A DNA stretch of 64,000 nucleotides from Gynuella sunshinyii YC6258 (GTDB lineage: Bacteria > Pseudomonadota > Gammaproteobacteria > Pseudomonadales > Natronospirillaceae), in assembly GCF_000940805.1 (NCBI RefSeq), contig NZ_CP007142.1, positions 408,593 to 472,592 of the forward strand. The letters run 5' to 3'. A model generated the notes under the pieces. The model ran no database searches and was not told where the DNA came from. It saw only the letters and a list, made by a program, of their open reading frames with translations. A program made the position numbers and the translations under genes. Below are positions 2,509-55,077 of the stretch, in pieces; the first letter of the stretch is position 1; the number at the start of each line of letters is the position of its first letter.

Positions 2509-2919
2509 TGAAAATATGTATGCCAGACTGCGCTTATAGTGAGAACATACTTTAAGACTTCTTCAAATATTTGAAGATAGCTTCATTCTTATTTCCTGTT
2601 TCAGTCAGATCTGCATGACCTTAAAATGCGTTGGCTAAATCCCTGCCTGTTTTTGTTTTGGCCAACTGAAATTTTGCAAAAAATGTGAACTGGTTAACAT
2701 CACAAAAGAAATTAATAGCCATCTATTAGGCATTCGTTTTAGAAACTGGAAGAAGTATTTGAAAAAGTCCATATATCCTTAATATGGGATATACAGTATA
2801 AATATTTACATTATACGGTTACATTATCTAATACTATCTACAGACAGGAGTCGTAGCCTCAGGAACCTCTGAACAACGGCTTTAGGATTCAGAGCATGCT
2901 CTGCCCCCCGGAGATTCAT

Positions 2920-5076
2920 ATGCAACAGAAAATAGCTTCTTTAAGTGTTAAAACAGCCTGGATATTATCCGCTGTGATGACTCTTACTGCCTGCACACTT
3001 AGTGGTGAGAGTAGCGATACCATTCAAAATATTGGGAAACCGAGTCCAATCAAAAGCCCAGTACCGACCATCACTCTGAATGGCAGCAGTAATATACAAA
3101 TTGCGGCTGGAAACAACTTCGAAGACCCGGGTGCGACAGCTTACGACGACCAGGATGGTGACCTGACAGGTTTTATCAATACCAAATCCGAGGTGAACAC
3201 CGCTGTTCCCGGACACTATAACATCGACTATTCCGTCACCGACTCCAACAAAAATACCGTATCTGTCTCCCGCACGGTTACCGTAGCCAAAAAGGGTGAT
3301 AACTACTATGTCGACTGGATTAAAGATTTTAGCCTGCCAGCTCAGGATAGTAATGGCTGGTCAGTTCTGACCCCTTCCAAAGACTCCAAAATAATGTATG
3401 TCAGCAACGATGGGAATGACGAAACAGCTAAAGTTTATACTCCAGACGACTCAACTGTTGGCAACGATGTTTTCAATCCTACTGGCGCAATTAAGCCCTA
3501 TGCCAGCATCGAAGCAGCGTTAGACCAACTACGACCTGGCAGCCCTGACTATGTTTTGCTTAAACGTGGCGATACCTGGGAAAGCCCTGAGGTAAACATT
3601 AAAGTTCATGGCCGCTCAGTTCAGGAAAAAGCGGTTTTAAGTGCATACGGTGACTTGGCAGATAACCGACCACTCATAAAAAACTCTGGAGCAATTCTGA
3701 ATAAAAGTGGATATCTGGCTATTGTTGGAATTCATTTTCAGGCCAGCAAACGTAACCCCAGCTCCAGCGATTTTGTTGGCTTTGACAAGGTCGATGACAC
3801 CAAAGGAATTAATGCGGCTTTATTCAATGATTATGGTGGTTTGCTGATCGAAGACTGTTGGTTTGAGTGGTTCGACAATAACTCTATTCAGTCATTTACA
3901 TTTGATAAGAATAATAATTTTTTGACCATTAAAGATATTATTGTTCGACGCAATATTTTTAATAATAACTATTCTACTGCGGCCCATTCCCAGGGTTTGT
4001 ATTCGGCATATACATCCATGCTACTGGAAGAAAATGTCTTTGATCACAATGGCTGGTATCAACAAGGTGACGGCAGTACTAAGAAAGATGGAAAAGCCAC
4101 AATGTTCAATCACAACACCTATTTCCCGGAAGCCCAGGGCTCTGTTTTTCGCAACAATATTTTTTTAAGAGCCTCAAGTATGGGTAACAAGTTCACGTCC
4201 AACTCTGAAGACTCGGAAGGCAGCAATAGTATTAAGGCCTGGAACATCCTGGTTGATAACAATTTTTATGCAGAGGGGGAAATTGGTATCAGTCTGGGAG
4301 GAAATAAAGATCAGGATGATGGGCCACGCTGGGAAAATATAATAGTCGTTAATAATGTCTTAACAGCAATTGGCAGGACGTTCCCAACGAATCGAACTTT
4401 AGGTTGGGGTATAGGCATCAGTGACTGGAAGAATGGACTGGTACAGAACAATCTGATGTTTAACTGGGGCCAGGATGATAATAAAAGTGGTGACTATAAA
4501 AACGTCTATGCCATTGACAGCAAAGGTCATGTGACCAATACCATCATTAATTACAATATTGCCTATGGACTTGTCACTGGTACAGCGGTCATCAGCTTTT
4601 CTGATCAGGGTGAAAAAGAGTTTGTCGCTCAGGCCAGTAACCATATTACCTTTACAAATAACCAAATCACTTTGCTTAAAGATTCAGGTGGCCGCATTAT
4701 GGCCTATGATATACAACCGAAAGCACAGAACTTTGCGAATAACGATTATCATTTCGACACCAACGATGCTTATTGGTTTCGTGCAACGGATAAGTACATC
4801 TGGTCAGAACTGAAAAGTAATCGGGATATTGATTTTGCTGGTTATCAAAGCATTAGTGAAGACAACACATCTATTCAGAATCGCCAATCCTACCCCGCCC
4901 CCAATCGAACGATTTCCGACTATCTGAAAGATAAGAATATTGACTCAACCGCCAATGCTACTACTGAAATGAATATTCTGGTCAATCTCCTGAAAACGCA
5001 GAGAAGGGGAAACTGGGATCAAAAGTTAACAGCAGGTGCGATCAATAACTATTTCCGGGAAGGATTTTCCCGTTAA
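2920..5076 (+). CDS. Lipoprotein, paralog B: lipobox signal, DUF5011-type Ig-like domain, then a right-handed parallel beta-helix. Putative polysaccharide lyase or glycosidase.
   Basis: ATG at 2920 is preceded by GGAG 8 nt upstream. Signal peptide MQQKIASLSVKTAWILSAVMTLTAC contains a lipobox (LTAC). The PGATAYDDQDGDLT motif indicates a DUF5011/Ig-like domain. The remainder is Asn-rich beta-helix repeats. Confidence 0.8.
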   Translation: MQQKIASLSVKTAWILSAVMTLTACTLSGESSDTIQNIGKPSPIKSPVPTITLNGSSNIQIAAGNNFEDPGATAYDDQDGDLTGFINTKSEVNTAVPGHYNIDYSVTDSNKNTVSVSRTVTVAKKGDNYYVDWIKDFSLPAQDSNGWSVLTPSKDSKIMYVSNDGNDETAKVYTPDDSTVGNDVFNPTGAIKPYASIEAALDQLRPGSPDYVLLKRGDTWESPEVNIKVHGRSVQEKAVLSAYGDLADNRPLIKNSGAILNKSGYLAIVGIHFQASKRNPSSSDFVGFDKVDDTKGINAALFNDYGGLLIEDCWFEWFDNNSIQSFTFDKNNNFLTIKDIIVRRNIFNNNYSTAAHSQGLYSAYTSMLLEENVFDHNGWYQQGDGSTKKDGKATMFNHNTYFPEAQGSVFRNNIFLRASSMGNKFTSNSEDSEGSNSIKAWNILVDNNFYAEGEIGISLGGNKDQDDGPRWENIIVVNNVLTAIGRTFPTNRTLGWGIGISDWKNGLVQNNLMFNWGQDDNKSGDYKNVYAIDSKGHVTNTIINYNIAYGLVTGTAVISFSDQGEKEFVAQASNHITFTNNQITLLKDSGGRIMAYDIQPKAQNFANNDYHFDTNDAYWFRATDKYIWSELKSNRDIDFAGYQSISEDNTSIQNRQSYPAPNRTISDYLKDKNIDSTANATTEMNILVNLLKTQRRGNWDQKLTAGAINNYFREGFSR

Positions 5077-5512: not shown

Positions 5513-7633
5513 ATGAATTTCAATAACCACAAATACTTACAAACAATATTTTGCTGTGCTCTATTGGCGGCATGCAACTCAGAAAGCGATTCAGGCAAAA
5601 CCAATACTGCCGCTGCACACAGCAGCCAGGGCCCTGAAATTCAACTGACCGGCATTGAAAATATACAACTGCTGGCCGGTAGCGATTTCGTTGATCCCGG
5701 CGCCGTTGCAGAAGATGCTGAGGATGGTGATCTGACATCCAGTATTTCTGTTGATTCGAATCTTGATGTTTCCACCACAGGCAAATACGGTATTACCTAT
5801 ACAGTCGTCGATTCTGATGGTCACGAAGCAACTGTCACACGCACCATTATTGTGGCTGCAGAGTTTGACGATAACTATCATGTCAGCTGGGAAAGCAACT
5901 TTAGCCTCCCCAAACAGGATGCAGACGGCTGGTCAATCTTAATACCCTCATCCAACTCGCGACTGATCTATATTTCAACCACGAGCGGTGACGACAATAC
6001 TGCGAAGGTTTACACGCCCAAGGATAGTGTAATCGGCGGAGACTATCGTAATCCTGCCGGTACGGTTTTAGCGTATAAGACAATGGAAGCCGCTTTCGAA
6101 CAATTAAGAGCCGGAAAACCAGACTACCTGCTGTTTAAGCGCGGAGACACCTTTACTAAAACCCCCGGCTTCGATCTTGCACTTAAAGCCGGTCGTTCAG
6201 CCTCCGAACGACAGGTTCTCACCAGTTATGGACCAGCCACAGAGAGACCTGTGATCGATACCGGTACTGGTTGGGGATTAAACTTCAACAATGCTCCCTA
6301 TTCAGCTGCCGTTGGATTATATGTTGTGGCCAGTGGACGTAACCCGGACCAGGACGGTGATGGCAAGGAGGACCGTGACTTTGACTGGAATTCCATAGGT
6401 CAGGCACTGGGTTTTCGTGGTTTGGATATCGTCGGCCACATACTGATCGAAGATTGCTGGTTCGACTGGTATTCAAGCAACTATTTCCAGTCAACCGATG
6501 ATAACTCCGAGGTGATAGACATTATTTTCAGACGGAACCTGGTGACCAACAATTATGCCGCGGTATCCGGTCAGAACACGCAAGGTATGTACTCCGATAA
6601 TGTTTCATCGTTAATTGAAGAAAACATTTTCGACCACAATGGCTGGTATAAACAGGGTACCGGTAGCGATGACAAAGAAGGTCAGGCTACTTACTACAAC
6701 CACAACATTTATTTTGTAGAACCCAGGAACACGATTGTCAGGAACAATCTGTTTTTGCGTTCATCCAGTATTGGTACCAAGTTCACCTCCAACACAACAT
6801 CCGGGGACAATCAGATCAAAGCCTGGAACCTGTTGGTTGATAACAATCTTTATCTTGAAGGCGAAGTTGGTATTGGTCTGAGCGGTAACAAAGATCAGAA
6901 CAACGGACCAAGATTTCAGCAAATCTACGTAACCAATAATGTGCTGATGAATATAGGCCGAACTCAGCCGTCTAAACGGGATCTTGGCTGGGGGATGGAT
7001 CTGGCTGACTGGAAAGGCGGGCTGGTCAACGGCAACATCTTTGCACACTGGGGACAATACAACGCTCAAAACAATAACAACTATGCCATGTATATAACTG
7101 GCGAGATGTCCAATACAGAGATCAGCAACAACATTATCTATGATATCTACAGCAATCAGGTTCTGGTCAACTTCACCGGATATGACGAAATCGTATCATT
7201 TGATTTTCACCACAATGAAATCCAGGGAAAGGATGCGAACGTTCAGCGACCTGGCCGCCTGTTGCAATATTCTGTTAACAAAGGCACTGGTAATCTGGCT
7301 AATAACTACTACTACTCAGAAGTAGAGCAGGATCACTGGTTTTCCGGGCAAGGTTCTGCTTATTTGACTCTGGATCAGTATCGCAGTTACTCCGGTGACA
7401 CGACATCCATGCCTCAGTCTCGCTCTTATGATGAGCCGGAGCGTTCTATTTCAAGTTATTTGTCCTCTCTCGGGTACGCCTCAGGGTTAAATGTAGATAC
7501 GGAAATGGCAGCGTTAATCGAGTTGTTACTGGCACAACAAAAAGGTAACTGGGACACCAACATAAGTGCTACAGCAATCAACAATTATATTCGCGAAGGA
7601 TTCTGCCTCGAGGGTAACTTCAGCTGCCGCTGA
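5513..7633 (+). CDS. Lipoprotein, paralog C, with the same architecture as paralog B. It is more divergent, roughly 45-50% identical.
   Basis: Lipobox LLAACNS. Ig-like domain motif PGAVAEDAEDGDLT. Conserved EDCWFDWYS and FDHNGWYKQGTGS motifs, and a C-terminal KGNWD...AINNY region shared by all three paralogs. Confidence 0.8.
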   Translation: MNFNNHKYLQTIFCCALLAACNSESDSGKTNTAAAHSSQGPEIQLTGIENIQLLAGSDFVDPGAVAEDAEDGDLTSSISVDSNLDVSTTGKYGITYTVVDSDGHEATVTRTIIVAAEFDDNYHVSWESNFSLPKQDADGWSILIPSSNSRLIYISTTSGDDNTAKVYTPKDSVIGGDYRNPAGTVLAYKTMEAAFEQLRAGKPDYLLFKRGDTFTKTPGFDLALKAGRSASERQVLTSYGPATERPVIDTGTGWGLNFNNAPYSAAVGLYVVASGRNPDQDGDGKEDRDFDWNSIGQALGFRGLDIVGHILIEDCWFDWYSSNYFQSTDDNSEVIDIIFRRNLVTNNYAAVSGQNTQGMYSDNVSSLIEENIFDHNGWYKQGTGSDDKEGQATYYNHNIYFVEPRNTIVRNNLFLRSSSIGTKFTSNTTSGDNQIKAWNLLVDNNLYLEGEVGIGLSGNKDQNNGPRFQQIYVTNNVLMNIGRTQPSKRDLGWGMDLADWKGGLVNGNIFAHWGQYNAQNNNNYAMYITGEMSNTEISNNIIYDIYSNQVLVNFTGYDEIVSFDFHHNEIQGKDANVQRPGRLLQYSVNKGTGNLANNYYYSEVEQDHWFSGQGSAYLTLDQYRSYSGDTTSMPQSRSYDEPERSISSYLSSLGYASGLNVDTEMAALIELLLAQQKGNWDTNISATAINNYIREGFCLEGNFSCR

Positions 7634-11220: not shown

Positions 11221-11444
11221 ACATCTCTGTCAGAAGGAAAGTGCAGGAAGACTAACAATCCAACATGACGATATGCTGAAACGACCGCTTTGATTGCCCT
11301 GACAACAATACACGGCAACCAACAGGTGTTACCGAAAGCAGAAAGAGGTGAAAGTACGGAAGATATACACCGAGAGGAGTGGGAGTGACAGAGAAGACCC
11401 AAACCGGTCTCCTCTGCCGTTTCAGGCATTCAGGATAAACAGAT

Positions 11445-12359
11445 TTATACCGACATACTCAGATAGCGTTCACCGGTATCACAGATCACCGTCACGACGG
11501 TTTTACCTGCTCCCAGTTTCTTGGCCACCCGCAATGCCGCTGCCACATTTGCCCCGGCGGAAATGCCTCCAAAAATACCTTCCTCCTTAACCAATCGTTC
11601 ACGCATCGCGAACGCATCAGCAGTATTCACCTTTTCAACACCATCAAGCAGCTCAACTGCCAGGTTCGCAGGTATGAAACCGGCACCGATACCCTGAATT
11701 TTATGAGGACTGTGAGTACCACCGGAAATGACCGGTGATTCTTCCGGCTCTACGGCAATAGCCTGAAACGCGCTGTTACGCGACTTGATCACGGAAGCCA
11801 CCCCACTGATGGTTCCTCCGGTACCCACACCGGCGACAAACGCATCAATGTTACCATCAGTGGCTTTCCAGATTTCCTCGGCCGTGGTTTTCCGGTGAAC
11901 TTCCGGATTGGCGGGATTCTCAAACTGCTGTGGCATGAAGGCATCAGGGTGCTGTGCCAATAATTCTTTGGCCTTGTTAATCGCCCCTGTCATGGCTTCT
12001 TTTCCCGGTGTCAGTACGATCTCTGCACCGTAACTGGTGAGCAGATGGCGACGCTCCACCGACATGGTATCTGGCATGGTCAGAATACATTTATAACCTC
12101 TGGCTGCCGCAACCAGCGCCAGCGCAATCCCGGTATTACCGGATGTCGGCTCAATAATTGTGCCGCCAGGCTTGAGCTGTCCGGAAGCCTCAGCTGCAGT
12201 AATCATCGCCAGCCCTATGCGGTCTTTTACCGAACCACCCGGATTCCTGGATTCCAGCTTCACATAGACATCGGCACTGCCGGCCTCAGGCAATCGCTGT
12301 AAACGAACTAAATCTGTATCACCGATCAGTGCGGTAATATCTGCTGCTTTAACAGTCAT
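11445..12359 (-). CDS. cysK: Cysteine synthase (O-acetylserine sulfhydrylase), PLP-dependent
   Basis: [16 protein letters not shown] around the PLP-binding lysine, the GNTGIALA motif, and the GTGGTISG glycine loop. Confidence 0.9.
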
Positions 12360-47719: not shown

Positions 47720-50209
47720 ATGAATTCAAAAACCCTAAAAGCCATTCTTGCGGCCGGATTTTTGCTTGCCGCAAATGGCATGACAGCAACCACCGCATAT
47801 GCAGCTTCTGACATGACTGATACCTCAGAAAAACAGACTCTTTCCAACGCAGACAGTCCAACCGGTATCTGGCAATGCCCGGATTCCGGTTTGTACTTCT
47901 GTGACGATTTCGCCACCGGCAGCACCAATAACTGGAACCTGCTGCCGCAGACCGAAAACAGCATGATACCCGATGGCAGTTTTGACCTCGTTAATGATGC
48001 AGACAACTATGTCCTGCGCTATACCGCCGATAAATCCGGTGGCGTTATTGCGCTGGTTAAACCATCAGCTTTATCCATGCTGACAACGGCAGACTATTAC
48101 GTTGAGGCGAAAATCAGACCGCGTTACAACTCGACAGCTGCCAACAAGCAACTTTATTTGCTTGGTCGCTATCAGGACGGTAACAACTGGTATGCCGGAG
48201 CGATGAACATTCAAAATTCCGTCGGCAGCACCCAGGTGGAAATTGCCAAAATGGTCAACGGCGAACTGACGCGTATGCAGCGAGTCAAAACACCGATTGA
48301 ACAGGGTGCAAAAGATGCCCTGGACGGACAATGGTACTACCTGCGTCTGGTACTGAAAGGTGACACCCTGACGGTTTATCTCGATGGCGATCAGATTGCC
48401 TCCACTACCGACACGAGTTTCACAGATACCGGCATCATCGGTCTCTGGACATCCAATAAATCATTCGAAATCGATGATGTCCGAGTCGGTAATGCCGACG
48501 ACCTTCCTGCATCTATCGTGTTGTCTCCCAGAGATACGGAATACAGCGCTGAAGTTGGAGATACGCCCAAGGTCGTTGAAGTCAGTACCCGTACAGAGAC
48601 CGGAGAAAATGATACCTTTACCGTCACCTCAAGCGATTCGAATGTGATTGCCATCAGCACGGCAGGTAATCAGGTTACCCTGACACCCGTGGGATCAGGC
48701 ACCGCCACGGTCACATTTATCAGCGGCTCAAATCTGGTTCGAAAAATCAGCGCCACCATTGCACCACAATTTGAAATGCCAACCGCAGTCTATAATTTCT
48801 GCAATGAACTCACACCCGCCTCAGGCGAATTCAATACCTATGAAGATACCCAGCTCAAAATCAGATTTGATTCTGAGGTAACACTGGGAGAGGGATCCAT
48901 TCGCATTTTCAGAACCAGCGATGATGTCATGGTGGACAAAATCAGTCTGATCAATGAATCAGACAACATAGGCTACAACCCGGTACGTACCATTAAAACC
49001 AATCAGGTCAGAATCGATGGCAACATTGTCCGTATCACCCCACACGCCAATACTCTGGAGCACGGTGTCAACTACTATATCGCCATAGCTAAAGAAGCAT
49101 TCACCGGTGCAACATTGGCAGGACAAGTATTTGAGGGCATTGGAAAAAACAGTGGCTGGACCTTTACCACCAGAATCAACGGACCAGATACCAACAAGAC
49201 CACGCTGGTGGTTAACGATAATGGTCATCATGCTGACTTCCGGTCAGTACAAGGCGCACTCAACTTTATCATGCAGAACGTGGCAGCAGATACACCTGCT
49301 ACGGTGTATATCAAAAATGGCATATATGAAGAACCGCTGTACCTTTACGGCAAAAATAACATTACCTTGAAAGGTGAAAACCGGCGTAGAACCATCATTC
49401 GTTACACCATCAATGAGAGCATGAACTCGGGTACCGCAGGACGACCATTATTCCTGATAGAACAGGCAGATATGGTCAGACTGGACAACCTGACACTGAA
49501 AAACACCACACTGATCGGGGAAGGGCACCAGGCTGAAACGCTATTCTTTAACAGCCCGGACGGTCGACTGATTGCCACCAACGCAGACTTTTTCAGCGAA
49601 CAGGACACTCTGAACCTTAAGGGCTGGACCTGGTTCTATAACACATTGGTTGCCGGAAATGTTGATTTTATCTGGGGCTACAGCAAAGTCTCCTTGTTCG
49701 AAAACAGCGAAATCCGCACGTTGGGAGATTCACGGGGTAATGGCAGCGGCGGATACGTCCTTCAGGCCCGGGTGGAAAATGAAACCGACAAAGGCTTTGT
49801 CTTCCTCAACTCAAAAATCACTCGCGGTAACGGTCCGAACGGCGACCCGGTCCTGGACAATACTACCTACCTGGCCCGAAGCGGCGGTTGCAGTGGCTGT
49901 TACGACAATATCGTGTTCGTCAATACTTACATGGACGCCCATATCAAACCCGTCGGCTGGCTAAACGATCCATTACCCACACCACAAATAGCCAATGAAA
50001 ATGCGGGTTGGCGGGAATACAACACAATGGATCTTAACGGCCAGGAACAAGACCTTTCAGAAAGACTCGAAACCTTATCTTACGAAATGAACGAAGAGGA
50101 AGTTCTGAATGGCTACAGCACGAGAGAACAGATATTTTCCGCCTATAACAACGGCGAAGGATGGGAGCCAATGAAAGACATATACAATCATTGGCCGAGG
50201 TTTAAATAA
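47720..50209 (+). CDS. Secreted multidomain carbohydrate esterase family 8 (pectin methylesterase-like) protein with N-terminal lectin/Ig-like (Big_2) domains
   Basis: Signal peptide MNSKTLKAILAAGFLLAANGMTATTAYA. Big_2-like segment. C-terminal CE8 motifs FFSEQDTL and GNVDFIWG. Confidence 0.7.
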   Translation: MNSKTLKAILAAGFLLAANGMTATTAYAASDMTDTSEKQTLSNADSPTGIWQCPDSGLYFCDDFATGSTNNWNLLPQTENSMIPDGSFDLVNDADNYVLRYTADKSGGVIALVKPSALSMLTTADYYVEAKIRPRYNSTAANKQLYLLGRYQDGNNWYAGAMNIQNSVGSTQVEIAKMVNGELTRMQRVKTPIEQGAKDALDGQWYYLRLVLKGDTLTVYLDGDQIASTTDTSFTDTGIIGLWTSNKSFEIDDVRVGNADDLPASIVLSPRDTEYSAEVGDTPKVVEVSTRTETGENDTFTVTSSDSNVIAISTAGNQVTLTPVGSGTATVTFISGSNLVRKISATIAPQFEMPTAVYNFCNELTPASGEFNTYEDTQLKIRFDSEVTLGEGSIRIFRTSDDVMVDKISLINESDNIGYNPVRTIKTNQVRIDGNIVRITPHANTLEHGVNYYIAIAKEAFTGATLAGQVFEGIGKNSGWTFTTRINGPDTNKTTLVVNDNGHHADFRSVQGALNFIMQNVAADTPATVYIKNGIYEEPLYLYGKNNITLKGENRRRTIIRYTINESMNSGTAGRPLFLIEQADMVRLDNLTLKNTTLIGEGHQAETLFFNSPDGRLIATNADFFSEQDTLNLKGWTWFYNTLVAGNVDFIWGYSKVSLFENSEIRTLGDSRGNGSGGYVLQARVENETDKGFVFLNSKITRGNGPNGDPVLDNTTYLARSGGCSGCYDNIVFVNTYMDAHIKPVGWLNDPLPTPQIANENAGWREYNTMDLNGQEQDLSERLETLSYEMNEEEVLNGYSTREQIFSAYNNGEGWEPMKDIYNHWPRFK

Positions 50210-50318
50210 ATAGATTAAGGGATTAAGCGTGTTTGATGCAGGGATGCATCGCTTTGAAGCATTCAATAGTATGACAGTCCGAAGGCGTCATATATGTCCT
50301 TTTTATATCTCCCTCTGG

Positions 50319-50651
50319 TTAGAAATTCAAAAACTTTAATGCAGCCAAAGCGATACAAATCACTATCGATGCAGCACTTAATCTATTCAGTATATTTAGA
50401 CTTTTTGCAATAGACTTCACTTTTTCATCTTCAAACTTTAAATAAGGCTTTACATTGAAGTATCTAATACGATTAAGGTGTAACCTAAAGGCATTATCAT
50501 CATACAGTCCAAATTCTATCAATTGGCTATCATCCAGCTTTTCAATAGCCAAAAAGAACTCGCGTTGCAATGAGTTATATTTATTGACAAGAAAAATCGA
50601 TATTACTAAAAACATTAAGAAAAATATGCTTATCATACCTATCACCGTCAA
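50319..50651 (-). CDS. Small membrane protein (two TM helices) in the AT-rich island
   Basis: 110-aa ORF with low-GC codon usage. Confidence 0.4.
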   Translation of the reverse strand: MTVIGMISIFFLMFLVISIFLVNKYNSLQREFFLAIEKLDDSQLIEFGLYDDNAFRLHLNRIRYFNVKPYLKFEDEKVKSIAKSLNILNRLSAASIVICIALAALKFLNF

Positions 50652-50654
50652 AAC

Positions 50655-51110
50655 TTCTGATCAAAGCCAACCGCAAGCATAGTCCCACTGCTACCAAATA
50701 CTAATCCAACACCGCCTTTGAAATTCGCGCCGCCAGAGCCAAGAGTACCACTAACTTTTGTACCAAAGATTCCTCTAGCAGGAGCGGTCCACGAAAATTT
50801 ATCGGTAATGTTTAGATCTGACGGACCTCTCTCTCCGATTGGAAAGTTATAATCAACTGTTAACGATAAGCTGCGCCTTTGATTAACCCCGATCCAGCAA
50901 AGAACTTTGCATCACCAGCCCCATTAATAGAAAAATCAACCCTATAACCAGCATTGTTTTTTCTAAGAGCTAAGGAGCCTGTAAAGGAATAACGATCGAG
51001 CTCGTCAAGAGAATCTACAAACCTAAATAGATCCTCTCTCACGCCTCCATCTAGCATTCGATTCCAGAAAAAGCCTGCAAATGAGTCTTCAGATACCTGA
51101 GGCAAACTAG
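50655..51110 (-). pseudogene. Disrupted outer-membrane beta-barrel (OmpA/OmpW-like porin family) gene, frameshifted
   Basis: Two frames give ...FAGSGLIKGAAYR and ...GTLGSGGANFKGGVGLVFGSSGTMLAVGFDQKF*, which is Gly-rich with a C-terminal Phe typical of OMPs. No intact start or signal peptide. Confidence 0.5.
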
Positions 51111-51141
51111 GCCAGCTCCACCTGCTCTTTTGTACATTAAA

Positions 51142-51195
51142 GATTCAAGTTTACGGGTGTATTTTTTATTTTCATTCTTTTTATTTTCAAATTTA
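51142..51195. repeat. Island repeat copy 1 (degenerate): GATTCAAGTTTACGGGTGTATTTTTTATTTTCATTCTTTTTATTTTC
   Basis: One of five copies of the GAATTCAAGTTTATGGATGTCCTTTTTAT... family. Confidence 0.6.
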
Positions 51196-51312
51196 TGAAT
51201 TCAAATAATGGGTGCCCTTTTTATTTCTTATAGCACAAGATTGGCCAAGTTATTTACAGAGATATGGGTTCTAACCGTTGGTAATGGTTTAAGATCTCCT
51301 TAAGTAGCCACA

Positions 51313-51360
51313 ATTCAAGTTTTTGGGTGTTATTTTTGTTTTCCATTCTCATCACCCAAA
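51313..51360. repeat. Island repeat copy 2 (degenerate)
   Basis: AATTCAAGTTTTTGGGTGTTATTTTTGTTTTCCATTCTC. Confidence 0.55.
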
Positions 51361-51484
51361 GATATCCACGACTTGCATCTTTTTATAGCTGCTAACAGGG
51401 TAGCTATCCAATATGAACTTCTCTAAATCATTCGACAGTCTCTGAAAATATGGTGTAGCACTTGTGCTGGTACCATCATGGATT

Positions 51485-51510
51485 AACAAGTTTATGGATG
51501 TCCTATTTAT
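51485..51510. repeat. Island repeat copy 3 (core only), 11 nt beyond the 3' end of lipoprotein gene 51521..51928
   Basis: AACAAGTTTATGGATGTCCTATTTAT. Confidence 0.6.
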
Positions 51511-51520
51511 TCACCAATCC

Positions 51521-51928
51521 CTATTCCTTAACAAAACATAAATGTAACTCTGTTTGAAAACAAAGATGTATATTTGGCTCCTTGTTCTTTGACGTTTTTA
51601 CGGCCAAAGTAAACCAATCACCACGAGAGCTTGATATGCCTTTCATAGCCCTAAACTTAAAATTGTAAAAAACAACATCAATTTCAATCACAGAGTCAGA
51701 TGGCGTTTCAACAAACTTCCAAGCGCCTTTTTCTTCTTTAACTTCATTTTCTTCTCGAAATTTGTGTATATATGTACCATCGGCATTTATTTCCAACTTG
51801 TCGGTATCATCCGCGTAATGGGCCAAATAGCTACCATACAATTCTTCAGCATTAAAATACTCTCGTTTAGATCCACATCCTGTGCAAATGGCCATGATCA
51901 AAACAAAAAGGGAAAGGTGAAATTTCAT
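51521..51928 (-). CDS. Lipoprotein (candidate immunity-type protein)
   Basis: Lipobox MKFHLSLFVLIMAICTGCGS. 135 aa. Abuts the upstream 225-aa ORF with no gap. Confidence 0.55.
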   Translation of the reverse strand: MKFHLSLFVLIMAICTGCGSKREYFNAEELYGSYLAHYADDTDKLEINADGTYIHKFREENEVKEEKGAWKFVETPSDSVIEIDVVFYNFKFRAMKGISSSRGDWFTLAVKTSKNKEPNIHLCFQTELHLCFVKE

Positions 51929-52606
51929 TTAATACTGCTCAGTTATAAAATAAGTTTGCGATACTGTTGACATTGGCGACATAGTGTAACCAGTTCTATC
52001 ATACGAAATTTCACCAAATATTCTTCCGGTTAGCGAAGATAAGCTGGTGTTATTGTCTAGCGCATACATTAACGTGCGATTTGGCCCTCCAACAATATCC
52101 GTTACCGTGAAGCTCCCGACATATGCCCCCGTAGGGCTTTGCCAAGCGATTTTGAATCCTTCGGCAATTGATATCGTCTTCCCAAAGTTGGTTGCATGAA
52201 TTCCACTCCAGTCATTAGATGCAGATAACTGCGAGCCATATGTTTTGAAAAATAAGTCTCTGACGCGTTGAAACTCCGGGGTTAAGCTTAGATTGTGAGA
52301 TTGAATAGAGTCTGGACCAAACACCAGTTCGGAAGGACCAACTCCGAGAAAAAATCCCGCGACAATCATTCCAGCGGTCGCGACTTCACCAACTTGATCT
52401 CCAATCCCAAAGCTCTTTTGTGCATTATCCACCACCACTACGATAGTCCCCTGTTCTGCCAACTCTTCCTGAGCACGTATATACATATATCCATTGGGCA
52501 CCACACTGGTAGTTCCATAAGGCGAATAGTACTGATTTTGCACTCCCAGCGCTGCATCGGCGCACTGGATGTCATTTTTATCTTTTTTTATTTTCTTTTG
52601 AAACAA
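51929..52606 (-). CDS. Hypothetical 225-aa protein without a signal peptide (candidate effector/toxin-like partner of the downstream lipoprotein)
   Basis: Clean ORF with low-GC usage and no recognisable domain. Confidence 0.4.
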   Translation of the reverse strand: MFQKKIKKDKNDIQCADAALGVQNQYYSPYGTTSVVPNGYMYIRAQEELAEQGTIVVVVDNAQKSFGIGDQVGEVATAGMIVAGFFLGVGPSELVFGPDSIQSHNLSLTPEFQRVRDLFFKTYGSQLSASNDWSGIHATNFGKTISIAEGFKIAWQSPTGAYVGSFTVTDIVGGPNRTLMYALDNNTSLSSLTGRIFGEISYDRTGYTMSPMSTVSQTYFITEQY

Positions 52607-52625
52607 GTATCCAACTACTAAATCT

Positions 52626-52874
52626 CTATAGGCATTCTTTTTGTTTTTTTAATTTTGAATATACAATACTAAATATTACGCTTTCGAACACAACATATAC
52701 ACAAGCTATAGCGGATCCTCCCCTTAAATCAGCACCTCCCACCAAACCAAGACAGAAAACCTGAAGAAGAAAAATAACCGACTCTTTTTTCACATCACCC
52801 AATGAAAATATCTTAATAAACCGAAAGCATGTACCGCCAAAAACTATTACTACCACAATTATTGTTTCCGTCAT
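52626..52874 (-). CDS. Small membrane protein (82 aa)
   Basis: Two TM helices. Overlaps the upstream small ORF by 4 nt. Confidence 0.35.
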   Translation of the reverse strand: MTETIIVVVIVFGGTCFRFIKIFSLGDVKKESVIFLLQVFCLGLVGGADLRGGSAIACVYVVFESVIFSIVYSKLKKQKECL

Positions 52875-53051
52875 AACCCTACACCCAGCATCGCGTTAGT
52901 TACAATAGTATTTGCAGACGCACCTAGTTGAAATAGGTCATATCCAACTATAATATTACCCTGAGTTAATATTGAGATTTTTGTAACCTCAGACCCTAAA
53001 GTCAGAGGTTTTTTTACTAGCGATATTAATTGCACCAGATATCTTTTCTGG

Positions 53052-53108
53052 GAATTCAAGTTTATGGATGTCCTTTTTATTTTTCTATTCTCTCTTTTTA
53101 TTCTTCTC
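53052..53108. repeat. Island repeat copy 4 (full length), 14 nt beyond the 3' end of lipoprotein gene 53122..53547
   Basis: GAATTCAAGTTTATGGATGTCCTTTTTATTTTTCTATTCTCTCTTTTTATTCTTC. Confidence 0.65.
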
Positions 53109-53121
53109 TATTTCGAATCGC

Positions 53122-53547
53122 CTAGCTTTCTATCTTATATTTCTTATGTAACTGAGAGATATTCCGTGGATCGATTTCGATAAGGACATCTTTAGTATCA
53201 AACCAAAGACTTAGGTATCTATCTTTAGATTGATTAAAATTTAATGGATTATTTTGCTGATATATATACAACAATCTTCTTCCCACGACGCTATTGTCTT
53301 CTTTTCTCGTCATAATAGTGTCATATGATGGTTCACCCAACATAGCTATAACAACAGCATATGAATCACCTATTTCTAATTTTTGGATTTTTTCGATATC
53401 TAACGGTAAGTTCTGTCTTTCTTCAATATTCAAATCACTATGCTTGGTATCATTACCATCTTTATTACATGCAGTAAAACCAAATAAGGTTATTGATATT
53501 GCTATACAAGTATTAATTACAATATTTAAACGCATATTCCTTAACAT
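53122..53547 (-). CDS. Lipoprotein (candidate immunity-type protein)
   Basis: Lipobox ISITLFGFTACNKDG. 141 aa. Confidence 0.55.
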   Translation of the reverse strand: MLRNMRLNIVINTCIAISITLFGFTACNKDGNDTKHSDLNIEERQNLPLDIEKIQKLEIGDSYAVVIAMLGEPSYDTIMTRKEDNSVVGRRLLYIYQQNNPLNFNQSKDRYLSLWFDTKDVLIEIDPRNISQLHKKYKIES

Positions 53548-53579
53548 CTTGTGGGCTCCAGATAAAATGATATTTTGAG

Positions 53580-53917
53580 GGCTTTCCTCCTACATGAAGA
53601 GCACCATACGCAGTAGTTGAACAATTAGAGTCGATAGTGGACCAGTTTTTATCTTATTTCCATTTATCCCACCACGATTTTATTTTTTCAGTATCTGGGT
53701 TAGTGACCAATATTTCATGATCAGGTATTTTTTGCCCTTCCAATCTTACGTCATCCTCAAAACTTTGATTGGCCATTTCTTCTGCTTCAAAGACTTGGCC
53801 TCCATAAGATCCGAATACTTTATATTTTTCTATAGGCCTTTGCTCAGGGCCAGGGCAGAAACTAATATGAGTTCCATTATTGTTTCCCTTGAGATTTTTG
53901 CTATTTTAATTTACTAA
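53580..53917 (-). pseudogene. Start-less C-terminal ORF fragment (...GTHISFCPGPEQRPIEKYKVFGSYGGQVFEAEEMANQSFEDDVRLEGQKIPDHEILVTNPDTEKIKSWWDKWK*) immediately upstream of the lipoprotein gene
   Basis: Open frame of about 100 codons with no plausible start other than an internal Met. Resembles an orphan C-terminal module. Confidence 0.35.
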
Positions 53918-54307
53918 GTTTCGGCTAAATACCAGCAATAGTGCAGAGAGCAGACAAACCAGACAGGATAACTTAAAAAGCAGCCCATACCGCGTATAAT
54001 TATTACACAGCGCATCTAACGTCGCATCACTAAGAGACTTATAAGATTTTTTCTTTAGAAAGTCGGAAAAAGCTTTTTGCCTACTTAGCTCGTAAACTTC
54101 AAATTTGAGAGAGACACCTAAATTTTTGCTAATATCAGGGTATGATTCAAGAAGTCTTTTTTTATATCTATTTTGAACACCATAGTCCCGACTAGAGAGA
54201 TAACTACGACTGCTACGGATAAGACGAATATTCACTCTACCAGCATATCTACTCTCCAGAATTGAATAATTGATAGCTGAATCCAACCGACCTTGCAACT
54301 GAACCAC
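53906..54307 (-). CDS. Hypothetical 133-aa protein with a C-terminal TM helix. Possibly the frameshifted continuation of the upstream Gly-rich fragment at 54310-54470.
   Basis: The same DNA upstream reads ...GLAGFKAAGSIGLNGLSDQVGIGVVKGG in another frame. Confidence 0.3.
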   Translation of the reverse strand: MVQLQGRLDSAINYSILESRYAGRVNIRLIRSSRSYLSSRDYGVQNRYKKRLLESYPDISKNLGVSLKFEVYELSRQKAFSDFLKKKSYKSLSDATLDALCNNYTRYGLLFKLSCLVCLLSALLLVFSRNLVN

Positions 54308-54561
54308 CTTTTACCACTCCGATACCGACTTGGTCACTTAAGCCGTTTAAACCGATGGACCCCGCTGCTTTGAATCCTGCCAACCCATACACTTGCGATG
54401 TAATTGATGTTTTACCCAAGAAATCGAGACCTCCAATTATTTCCAGCGAATGGCTGCGCTTGCAAGTTTAAATCCGCCGTTAGTGAAAAGCTTCTACCTG
54501 TCACGTAACCTGTTTCTTCGGCTCCAGGAATTTCAATTCATATATTTTCCTGGACAGCCAG

Positions 54562-54590
54562 GAATTCAAGTTTATGGATGTCCTTTTTAT
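54562..54590. repeat. Island repeat copy 5 (core)
   Basis: GAATTCAAGTTTATGGATGTCCTTTTTAT. Confidence 0.65.
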
Positions 54591-54750
54591 ATTTTTTATA
54601 CTTCCGCGAATGCGCGGGATAATTATTAATATTAAAATTTTTTATGCCCTTCTCAAAGGATCTTTTTTATTCTGGTAATAGACTTATTCAATATGGTAGA
54701 AAATGAAATATACTACGATTGGTTTTCAGTCAACGAGAAAAGGATAAGTT

Positions 54751-55077
54751 ATGAAGAGGGTTTTACTTTTATTGATATCAATCTTGTCGGTTAATACTTT
54801 GGCATATACGGAATGTAGCCGTTCTCCAAACAAAGTCTGGCTAAACCTTACGGGTAATTCAGTCTGGATTTGCTTCGATACAGGAAATTGTGTCTATAAA
54901 ACAGTTTCTGGTAACTTTACTGAAGCCCATCTGGACAGGATGTATGCAACTGGTATGGCAGCAATATCAGCGGGGAAAAATCTGATTATCAGATACCCAG
55001 AAGACAATGCAAACTGCAGTGACCTGACCAGCACTCCGAGCAGAGATGATATTCAAGGGTTGTGGTTCACCAAATAA
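54751..55077 (+). CDS. Small secreted cysteine-containing protein (108 aa)
   Basis: Sec signal MKRVLLLLISILSVNTLAYT; four Cys residues in the mature part. Confidence 0.45.
   Translation: MKRVLLLLISILSVNTLAYTECSRSPNKVWLNLTGNSVWICFDTGNCVYKTVSGNFTEAHLDRMYATGMAAISAGKNLIIRYPEDNANCSDLTSTPSRDDIQGLWFTK

Follow-up and report, generated by a model that had tools for sequence, protein, structure and literature searches.

Closest described systems

The systems closest to the locus described here are the orphan rhs-CT/rhsI modules of Escherichia coli, Salmonella and Dickeya, which are accounted for by the C-terminal displacement model. We analyzed a 64-kb stretch of the genome of Gynuella sunshinyii YC6258, referred to throughout as the window, in which a low-GC (guanine plus cytosine) island carries two gene pairs, both on the minus strand. 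Pair 1 joins a 225-codon open reading frame (ORF) to the gene of a lipoprotein of 135 amino acids (aa), and pair 2 joins an ORF without a start to the gene of a 141-aa lipoprotein. An earlier interpretation made from the letters alone (the sequence-only reading) had proposed both as effector/immunity pairs. Our best explanation, to which we assign a probability of roughly 80%, is that the island is an array of orphan Rhs-type toxin-immunity cassettes, in which pair 1 is a well-preserved module and pair 2 a decayed one.

about 50250..54650 (4.4 kb), minus strand: low-GC, foreign-looking island with the cassette array

The resemblance to the classical rhs orphans covers several features: a variable toxin domain follows a core-end motif, with a small immunity gene immediately downstream; AT content is higher than in the genome at large; arrays contain silent, 5'-truncated copies; and the same toxin occurs fused to Rhs in a sister genome. 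Two features set the Gynuella array apart. Classical orphans keep fragments of the rhs core, which are used for recombination, whereas the Gynuella orphans keep none and are bounded instead by a 26-nucleotide (nt) AT-rich junction repeat. Likewise, classical arrays follow a main rhs gene, but none stands upstream of this array among the window ORFs scanned (20 large ones).

Other systems offer partial parallels. Envelope-directed effectors of type VI secretion systems (T6SS), Tae/Tai and Tle/Tli, likewise couple a small toxin tightly to an immunity gene encoding a signal peptide or lipoprotein; unlike them, the proteins described here have no homology to these families (Pfam and NCBIfam negative) and no T6SS linkage among the scanned window ORFs. 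Among lipid II-degrading systems acting in the periplasm, we considered Colicin M/Cmi and the T6SS effector-immunity pairs DUF3289/DUF943 to be close. Acquired interbacterial defence islands and integron arrays share small same-strand cassettes and repeated junctions with the island, but the island has no recombinase or integrase next to it and no attC structure, and its junction measures only about 26 nt. Finally, as in orphan-immunity islands, immunity genes are kept while toxins decay: the related contig L059, described below, keeps a 110-aa transmembrane (TM) protein gene whose accompanying toxin fragment has been deleted.

Organization of pair 1

52606..51929, minus strand: 225-aa ORF (WP_044615584.1), TTG start, stop TAA at 51931-51929
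51932..52429, minus strand: toxin domain proper, residues ~60-225, a new family
51928..51521, minus strand: 135-aa lipoprotein (WP_044615583.1), ATG directly after the toxin TAA

The layout of pair 1 is as the sequence-only reading described it, with the 225-codon ORF followed at zero gap by the 135-aa ORF; the two share one frame, and only the TAA lies between them. Two further statements of that reading stand. The 225-aa protein has no signal peptide, its N-terminus not being hydrophobic, and the 135-aa protein is a lipoprotein whose signal peptide ends in ..AICTGC, with a cysteine that is invariant in the family alignment (signal peptides and lipoboxes of both lipoproteins were judged by sequence inspection). 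At the other end of the module, codons ~3-14 of the 225-aa ORF fall within a degenerate copy of the junction repeat. The core-end motif PxxxxDPxG[LY] is absent from this ORF, whose 5' end is derived from the junction, and the window gene is thus read as an orphan fragment, not an Rhs protein.

A putative toxin domain at the C-terminus of Rhs carriers

Searched with a word index, the 225-aa protein had only two relatives, one from Aliikangiella sp. and one from a JGI metagenome, both of 236 aa. The C-terminal ~165 residues are common to the three at 58-59% identity, and the N-termini are unrelated. A three-sequence profile of this domain, run exhaustively against 1.84 billion representatives, gave 34 matches at E<=1e-3; 33 of these are credible, the other being a repeat protein of low complexity. 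The credible homologues range from 124 to 1370 aa, and in every one of them the domain ends 0-19 residues from the C-terminus. The long carriers contain RHS_repeat and TEN_YD-shell domains, with DUF637 (a CdiA-type pre-toxin domain) in one case and LysM in one; many of the short, fragmentary matches start with the end of an Rhs core (..NRYxY..NP..DPxGL). The core-end motif PxxxxDPxG[LY] is present in L059, in the JGI contig L003 and in many carriers. In other genomes, the domain forms the very end of its carriers, which are mostly Rhs/YD-shell proteins, with TcC-like and CdiA-like ones besides. The sequence-only reading had named homologous C-terminal domains on larger effector genes as a thing to look for; for pair 1 they exist, in other genomes.

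The window protein belongs to this family. A hidden Markov model (HMM) built from the Rhs-linked subfamily alone, with the Gynuella-type sequences left out, matched the 225-aa protein at 69 bits (E 1.6e-23). Conserved positions, in domain numbering, include GxGP, R56, G104 (FVGS), N125/S128/S131 (TNxTSxxS), R144 (WER), Q157 and E163 (QTYxWTE), and the window copy keeps all invariant and near-invariant positions of the 30-sequence alignment. The domain has no Pfam or NCBIfam family and no sequence relative in the PDB. By these comparisons, the last ~165 residues of the 225-aa protein are a putative toxin domain of a previously undescribed family.

Several metagenome loci show the carriers in their surroundings. 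Further toxin-domain carriers lie at 4328-10902 on contig L034, 2-5101 on L026 and 1916-2302 on L008. In one locus, a TcB-like protein (SpvB/FG-GAP/TcdB_mid) is followed by the Rhs carrier and then by the lipoprotein; in another, an orphan Rhs fragment stands behind a main Rhs gene; there is also a neighboring orphan Rhs end whose C-terminus is a glycine zipper. The JGI homologue P0003, annotated at 236 aa on contigs L003-L005, has an in-frame Rhs core end, ..DPFIQAPSNTQSINPYSYIMNNPLAGTDPTGY, ahead of it. Because its ORF is open to the contig start, with the core end upstream of the called ATG, the 236-aa call is an artefact of gene calling on a short contig.

An Rhs-fused copy in a sister assembly

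The 90% cluster of the 135-aa lipoprotein has a second member, found on contigs L059 (GCA_050296355.1, 2.7 kb) and L060, which are 95% identical to window positions 52557..51484. On L059, the toxin ORF extends without a stop to the start of the contig and has the end of an Rhs core, ..NNPLSYSDPSGY.., in frame with the toxin region; the upstream extension reads ..VQSYNRYAYVLNNPLSYSDPSGYRVEEG.. as far as the contig end. Across the fusion, the sequence runs ..VQSYNRYAYVLNNPLSYSDPSGYRVEEGCGCS...NASLGVQNQYY..., passing from the Rhs core end into the toxin region without loss of frame.

52557..52566 (about 52560), minus strand: breakpoint at which the 95% similarity to L059 begins, ~8 nt from the degenerate junction copy

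Upstream of this breakpoint, the window has the junction repeat where L059 has the Rhs core end. The Rhs-fused copy has no counterpart of the first ~16 codons of the window gene (MFQKKIKKDKNDIQCAD), the greater part of which belongs to the junction repeat. Since similarity stops ~8 nt from that repeat, the window gene is identified as a 5'-truncated orphan Rhs C-terminal module, demonstrably cut from an Rhs gene. The sequence-only reading had invoked an origin from the 3' end of a larger gene for pair 2, but it is pair 1 for which this is true.

The truncation also bears on the idea that the two pairs are not silent orphans but function on their own as effector and immunity genes, for instance as small T6SS cargo carried on Hcp or VgrG encoded elsewhere. 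The full set of invariant and near-invariant residues kept by the pair-1 domain is in its favor, as are the stand-alone 236-aa form with its own ATG in Aliikangiella and the stand-alone forms of 167-180 codons, followed by the immunity gene, in several metagenome loci. However, the window copy is demonstrably a truncated form of an Rhs-fused gene, in which the junction repeat has taken over the 5' end; its TTG start is weak, Pfam finds no known T6SS targeting domain in it, no T6SS genes occur among the scanned window ORFs, and the upstream ORF of pair 2 has an internal stop and lacks a start. We regard stand-alone activity of both pairs as improbable and retain the reading of pair 1 as an orphan Rhs module.

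The remainder of L059 is an array of its own. In order, it contains the Rhs-CT, the 135-aa lipoprotein gene, a junction, the end of a toxin fragment with the 110-aa TM gene, a second junction, 50 nt, a third junction, a 184-aa lipoprotein ORF, a remnant of the 141-aa lipoprotein gene and a junction remnant. The toxin fragment is reduced to its last ~10 codons and, together with the 110-aa TM gene, is 99.5% identical to window positions 50682..50302. The 141-aa lipoprotein gene is a 5'-truncated, frameshifted remnant, 84% identical to 53358..53159, and stands behind the different 184-aa lipoprotein ORF. On L059, the array does follow an Rhs gene, unlike in the window.

The lipoprotein as the probable immunity protein

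A homologous lipoprotein of 129-142 aa lies directly downstream of the toxin domain in all six of the first contexts inspected, namely Aliikangiella, the JGI contigs, two Rhs genes in full length and one Rhs fragment. Of 31 distinct metagenome loci whose downstream sequence is long enough, 27 show the same arrangement. Built from 26 of these metagenome proteins, an HMM matched the window 135-aa lipoprotein at 73 bits and gave no match to the 141-aa lipoprotein of pair 2. The family is not in Pfam, NCBIfam or the PDB. This linkage strongly supports the 135-aa lipoprotein as the cognate immunity-family protein of the putative toxin domain. The proposal of the sequence-only reading that pair 1 is an effector/immunity pair is strongly supported on three counts: the domain is C-terminal on Rhs carriers, a 95%-identical Rhs-fused copy exists, and the lipoprotein accompanies the domain in 27 of 31 loci.

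The junction repeat between cassettes

The cassettes are separated by a 26-nt repeat, AATAAAAAGGACATCCATAAACTTG in gene sense, present in eight copies that all lie within the island, with none elsewhere in the window.

54567..54592, minus strand: full copy (copy 1), with a sharp end at ..CTTG
53057..53082, minus strand: full copy (copy 2), its 17-nt core identical to copy 1
52566..52599, minus strand: degenerate copy (..AAAAATGACATCCA..), abutting the truncated toxin gene
51487..51512, minus strand: full copy, directly after the pair-1 immunity gene
51316-51341, minus strand: diverged copy
51208-51232, minus strand: diverged copy
51146-51171, minus strand: diverged copy
50294..50311, minus strand: partial copy (AAAAAGGACAT followed by ATATGACG..) at the end of the array
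1244-1269, 1657-1682, 1711-1736 and ~2690-2705 of L059: four copies of the identical junction

Between the three diverged copies within 51146..51341 there is almost nothing, so that they delimit empty cassettes. The conserved block ends exactly at ..CTTG in the eight copies with an intact end, counted over both genomes, and what comes after it is unrelated. Beside a junction, two toxin genes that differ from each other have been cut short, one directly after ..CTTG (L059) and the other ~8 nt from the degenerate copy (pair 1 in the window), and cassette order differs between the window and L059. No cassette in the window contains a remnant of the Rhs core.

These properties raise the possibility that the island is a mobile, integron-like array in which the 26-nt junction is a site of site-specific recombination or nicking, at which 5'-truncated toxin genes with their immunity genes would be captured and shuffled independently of Rhs core homology. 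The eleven clear copies in the two genomes (six in the window and five in L059), the two partial copies in the window, the exact end of the block, the altered cassette order, the different extents of toxin truncation and the lack of core remnants in the orphans all agree with such an array. Yet library scans found no recombinase, integrase or transposase in or beside the Gynuella island; no attC-type inverted repeats and no RYYYAAC or GTTRRRY cores occur at the junctions, with no integrase nearby; and 43 other loci of the toxin family lack the motif. In addition, RecA recombination over short homology, combined with selection against intact toxins, could yield the same picture. We therefore hold a mobile array of this kind to be unlikely. 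Equally unlikely is its more specific form, in which an undescribed process of cassette capture, recombining or nicking at the junction, would build and shuffle Rhs orphan toxin-immunity arrays without rhs core homology; it would cut toxin genes down by varying amounts, precisely at the junction, and the array might be akin to a transposase-linked array in Aliikangiella.

The latter array, in Aliikangiella sp. IMCC44653 (contig L001, 9700-16000), has a homologous toxin/lipoprotein module beside tuf and small ORFs bounded by repeats. The repeat between the ORFs is a composite of ~470 nt (171-nt, 76-nt and 171-nt units) that takes in the first ~57 nt of a gene for a 325-aa protein resembling Y1 (IS200-like) transposases (11379-12356). 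It includes an A-rich GGRCACCCA..CTT motif that can be aligned with the Gynuella junction in the same orientation. As an argument for a mobile array, this motif beside a transposase-like gene is limited by the shortness of the similarity and the degeneracy of the copies, and we treat the resemblance as a weak lead only.

Searches for the repeat beyond these genomes returned one chance match in the genome contig collection, in an archaeal metagenome-assembled genome, and two chance matches in viral contigs, both without the A-rich flank. By inspection, the junction matches no consensus for an integron attC, a dif/Xer site, a promoter or a terminator, and these candidates were rejected.

Pair 2: a disrupted frame before an intact lipoprotein gene

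53516..53905, minus strand: upstream ORF of pair 2 (fragment D), 83 + 46 codons in one frame with a TAA at 53656-53654 between
53122..53547, minus strand: 141-aa lipoprotein (WP_044615586.1), lipobox ..LFGFTAC

Pair 2 exists in outline as the sequence-only reading had it: a frame ending ..IKSWWDKWK*, without a start, precedes the 141-aa lipoprotein gene. Its dimensions have to be revised. Instead of the ~100 codons ending at 53580 that had been given, the open frame comprises 83 codons (53905..53657) and ends at the TAA at 53656-53654; the distance to the lipoprotein ATG (53547) is 106 nt and not 30 nt. Past the TAA, 46 further codons continue to 53516 and overlap the start of the lipoprotein gene by 32 nt. 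There is no in-frame start near the 5' end, and a Shine-Dalgarno (SD)-like AAGGGA with an ATG at 53877 belongs to another frame, which stops after 15 codons.

The open frame exceeds chance expectation. Mononucleotide shuffles of the 393-nt gap reached an open stretch of at least 83 codons with a probability of 0.016, and 130 codons with one stop with a probability of 0.0012. GC by codon position is 0.47/0.34/0.30, with GC1>GC2>GC3 as in the neighboring genes. Fragment D is a probable pseudogene that seems to have died recently. Judged by eye, its GTHISF..SNCSTTAYG stretch may hint at an H..C permuted-papain-like fold. The 133-aa ORF that precedes it, fragment D and the continuation form a single frame (54310-53516), interrupted only by the TAA at 53908-53906 and that at 53656-53654; this run may be due to chance (about 1 in 9) or may be one larger dead gene. 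Derivation of pair 2 as a copy of pair 1 is ruled out by hhalign and by HMM.

In a different account of pair 2, the open frame would either encode nothing or be what is left of some unrelated gene, and an ordinary envelope lipoprotein resembling BamE would be the product of the 141-aa ORF. Neither sequence has homologues or family matches, and the lipoprotein has a weak BamE match (E 0.0023, below threshold). In L059, moreover, what precedes the remnant of its gene is another lipoprotein ORF (184 aa), and the pairing is therefore not kept. On the other side, the open frame fills the whole gap, overlaps the lipoprotein start, is improbable by chance (p about 0.001-0.016) and has the coding-like order GC1>GC2>GC3; the other cassettes of the array are toxin/immunity-like; and the 141-aa lipoprotein is an ORFan in a low-GC island, unlike the housekeeping BamE. 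This account is somewhat unlikely, though less so than the two alternatives weighed above. The effector/immunity interpretation of pair 2 thus survives in part, as a disrupted, coding-like ORF upstream of an intact lipoprotein gene in a toxin/immunity-like array, and lacks the homologues that pair 1 has. From its position, pair 2 is a plausible toxin-immunity remnant.

Predicted fold and target of the toxin domain

The AlphaFold model of the toxin domain, computed from 30 aligned sequences, is confident (predicted local distance difference test, pLDDT, 85; predicted template modelling score, pTM, 0.80). The two best Foldseek matches of the model are colicin M, with E 0.17-0.57 and template modelling scores of 0.32-0.36. 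Fold comparison of the model gave the following pairs of values, the two columns being unlabelled.

BtpeA C-terminal domain (DUF3289 T6SS effector): 5.0; 120
PaeM: 4.9; 81
Pectocin M1: 4.7; 106
Syringacin M: 4.7; 80

DUF3289 has been proposed as a homologue of colicin M, and its expression in the periplasm rounds cells (PMC11148199). For the domain described here, these model-based hints of a colicin-M-like fold are weak and come without sequence support. The domain may be an enzyme that has the colicin M fold and uses another active site. A colicin-M-like activity directed at lipid II appears rather unlikely.

The immunity partner is more informative. Lipoprotein immunity of the Tsi, Tli or Cmi type goes with a periplasmic or envelope site of toxin action. 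Being a lipoprotein, the immunity protein would face the periplasm, and by analogy the most likely target of the toxin is in the periplasm or envelope.

Findings that weigh against the orphan-cassette reading

Several results count against the reading of the island as orphan Rhs-type toxin-immunity cassettes, or against parts of it. The 20 large ORFs that were scanned in the 64-kb window include no gene for Rhs, VgrG, Hcp, PAAR or any other delivery component. The TTG start of the 225-aa ORF has no clear SD sequence, which makes the start uncertain. Comparison of the window toxin with that of L059 gives a ratio of non-synonymous to synonymous substitution rates (dN/dS) of about 1.2 (14 non-synonymous and 4 synonymous changes), against about 0.5 for the immunity gene; the counts are small, too few to decide, and would fit relaxed constraint on an orphan toxin. 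With regard to the target, hhalign of the toxin family with colicin M alone, or with a seven-member ColM alignment from plasmid records, gave probabilities of 0.1-0.5%, and the 30-sequence toxin alignment has no counterpart of DxYDx5HR, the catalytic motif of ColM. For pair 2, fragment D has no homologue or family match by word-index search, tblastn against plasmids or family libraries, and the 141-aa lipoprotein has no homologue by word-index search and no family match above threshold.

Other cassettes and setting of the island

In the direction of transcription, the array is ordered as follows, all on the minus strand.

First cassette: Gly-rich fragment, 133-aa tail-anchored ORF, fragment D and 141-aa lipoprotein
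53906..54467, minus strand, within the first cassette: Gly-rich fragment (54467..54252) and 133-aa ORF (54307..53906) with a C-terminal TM helix
Second cassette, 52626..53059, minus strand: 62-aa ORF and 82-aa three-TM protein
52871-53059, minus strand: 62-aa small ORF, TTG start and upstream AAGGA both inside the junction repeat
52626-52874, minus strand: 82-aa three-TM protein, overlapping the 62-aa ORF by ATGA
Third cassette: 225-aa ORF and 135-aa lipoprotein (pair 1)
Fourth to sixth cassettes: nearly empty
Last cassette, 50319..51144, minus strand: two frameshifted fragments (51144..50863 and 50911..50651, the latter with a Gly-rich end) and 110-aa TM protein (50651..50319)
47720..50209, plus strand: pectinesterase gene, one neighbor of the island
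55246.., minus strand: cytochrome b/multihaem cytochrome operon, the other neighbor

All credible genes of the island lie on the minus strand, and its GC content is 34-41% (about 50-55 kb), compared with ~50% in both flanks. The Gly-rich fragment and the 133-aa ORF look like a further toxin-remnant/immunity-like pair, placed in the same cassette as pair 2. By its architecture, the combination of the 62-aa ORF and the 82-aa protein looks like an intact pair of a small bacteriocin-like peptide and a membrane immunity protein. Apart from the junctions, an all-against-all blastp of the island reading frames revealed no paralogy, and all cassette products stay below threshold in Pfam, NCBIfam, PHROGs and PDB sequence searches.

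No main rhs gene precedes the array among the window ORFs scanned; the cytochrome b gene stands there instead. The 20 large window ORFs also include no integrase or transposase, and a search for tRNA and Rfam elements near the island found none. Divergent from the array, still within the low-GC stretch, is the gene of a 108-aa Cys-containing secreted protein (54751-55077, plus strand), which has no Pfam, NCBIfam or PHROGs match. Elsewhere in the window, two tandem paralogous proteins of ~700 aa (2896-5076 and 5513-7633, plus strand), unrelated to the pairs, each carry an N-terminal bacterial surface Ig-like domain.

Proposed function and significance

The delivery steps proposed here are modeled on what is established for Rhs systems. 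Where the system is complete, the toxin domain would be enclosed in the YD shell, freed by autoproteolysis after the DPxG[LY] motif and would then enter a neighboring cell, where it would attack an envelope target; a colicin-M-like hit on a peptidoglycan precursor is one weakly suggested option. The domain is predicted to be toxic, and the cognate lipoprotein would neutralize it. In G. sunshinyii, the 26-nt junction repeat has taken the place of the Rhs shell and of the first ~43 post-cleavage codons, and with the shell so replaced, the toxin is probably not deliverable from this locus. In pair 2, the ORF in the toxin position would have been inactivated by a nonsense codon and lacks a start; an intact ORFan lipoprotein gene follows.

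Orphan toxin/immunity genes of the Rhs type are, in their general biology, familiar. What is new is an unannotated toxin domain family with its lipoprotein immunity family (about 34 clusters among 1.84 billion representatives) and a short junction repeat with a sharp edge. The confident predicted structure of the toxin domain is at hand for experiments, and because the breakpoint lies ~8 nt from a short repeat, the origin of the orphan module and the role of the repeat can be tested directly. For the organism, the orphan module would most plausibly retain immunity against relatives that carry the Rhs-attached toxin and serve as a reservoir of toxin sequence. For the family, one toxin gene in two states, attached to Rhs and orphaned, in two closely related genomes provides a clean natural example.

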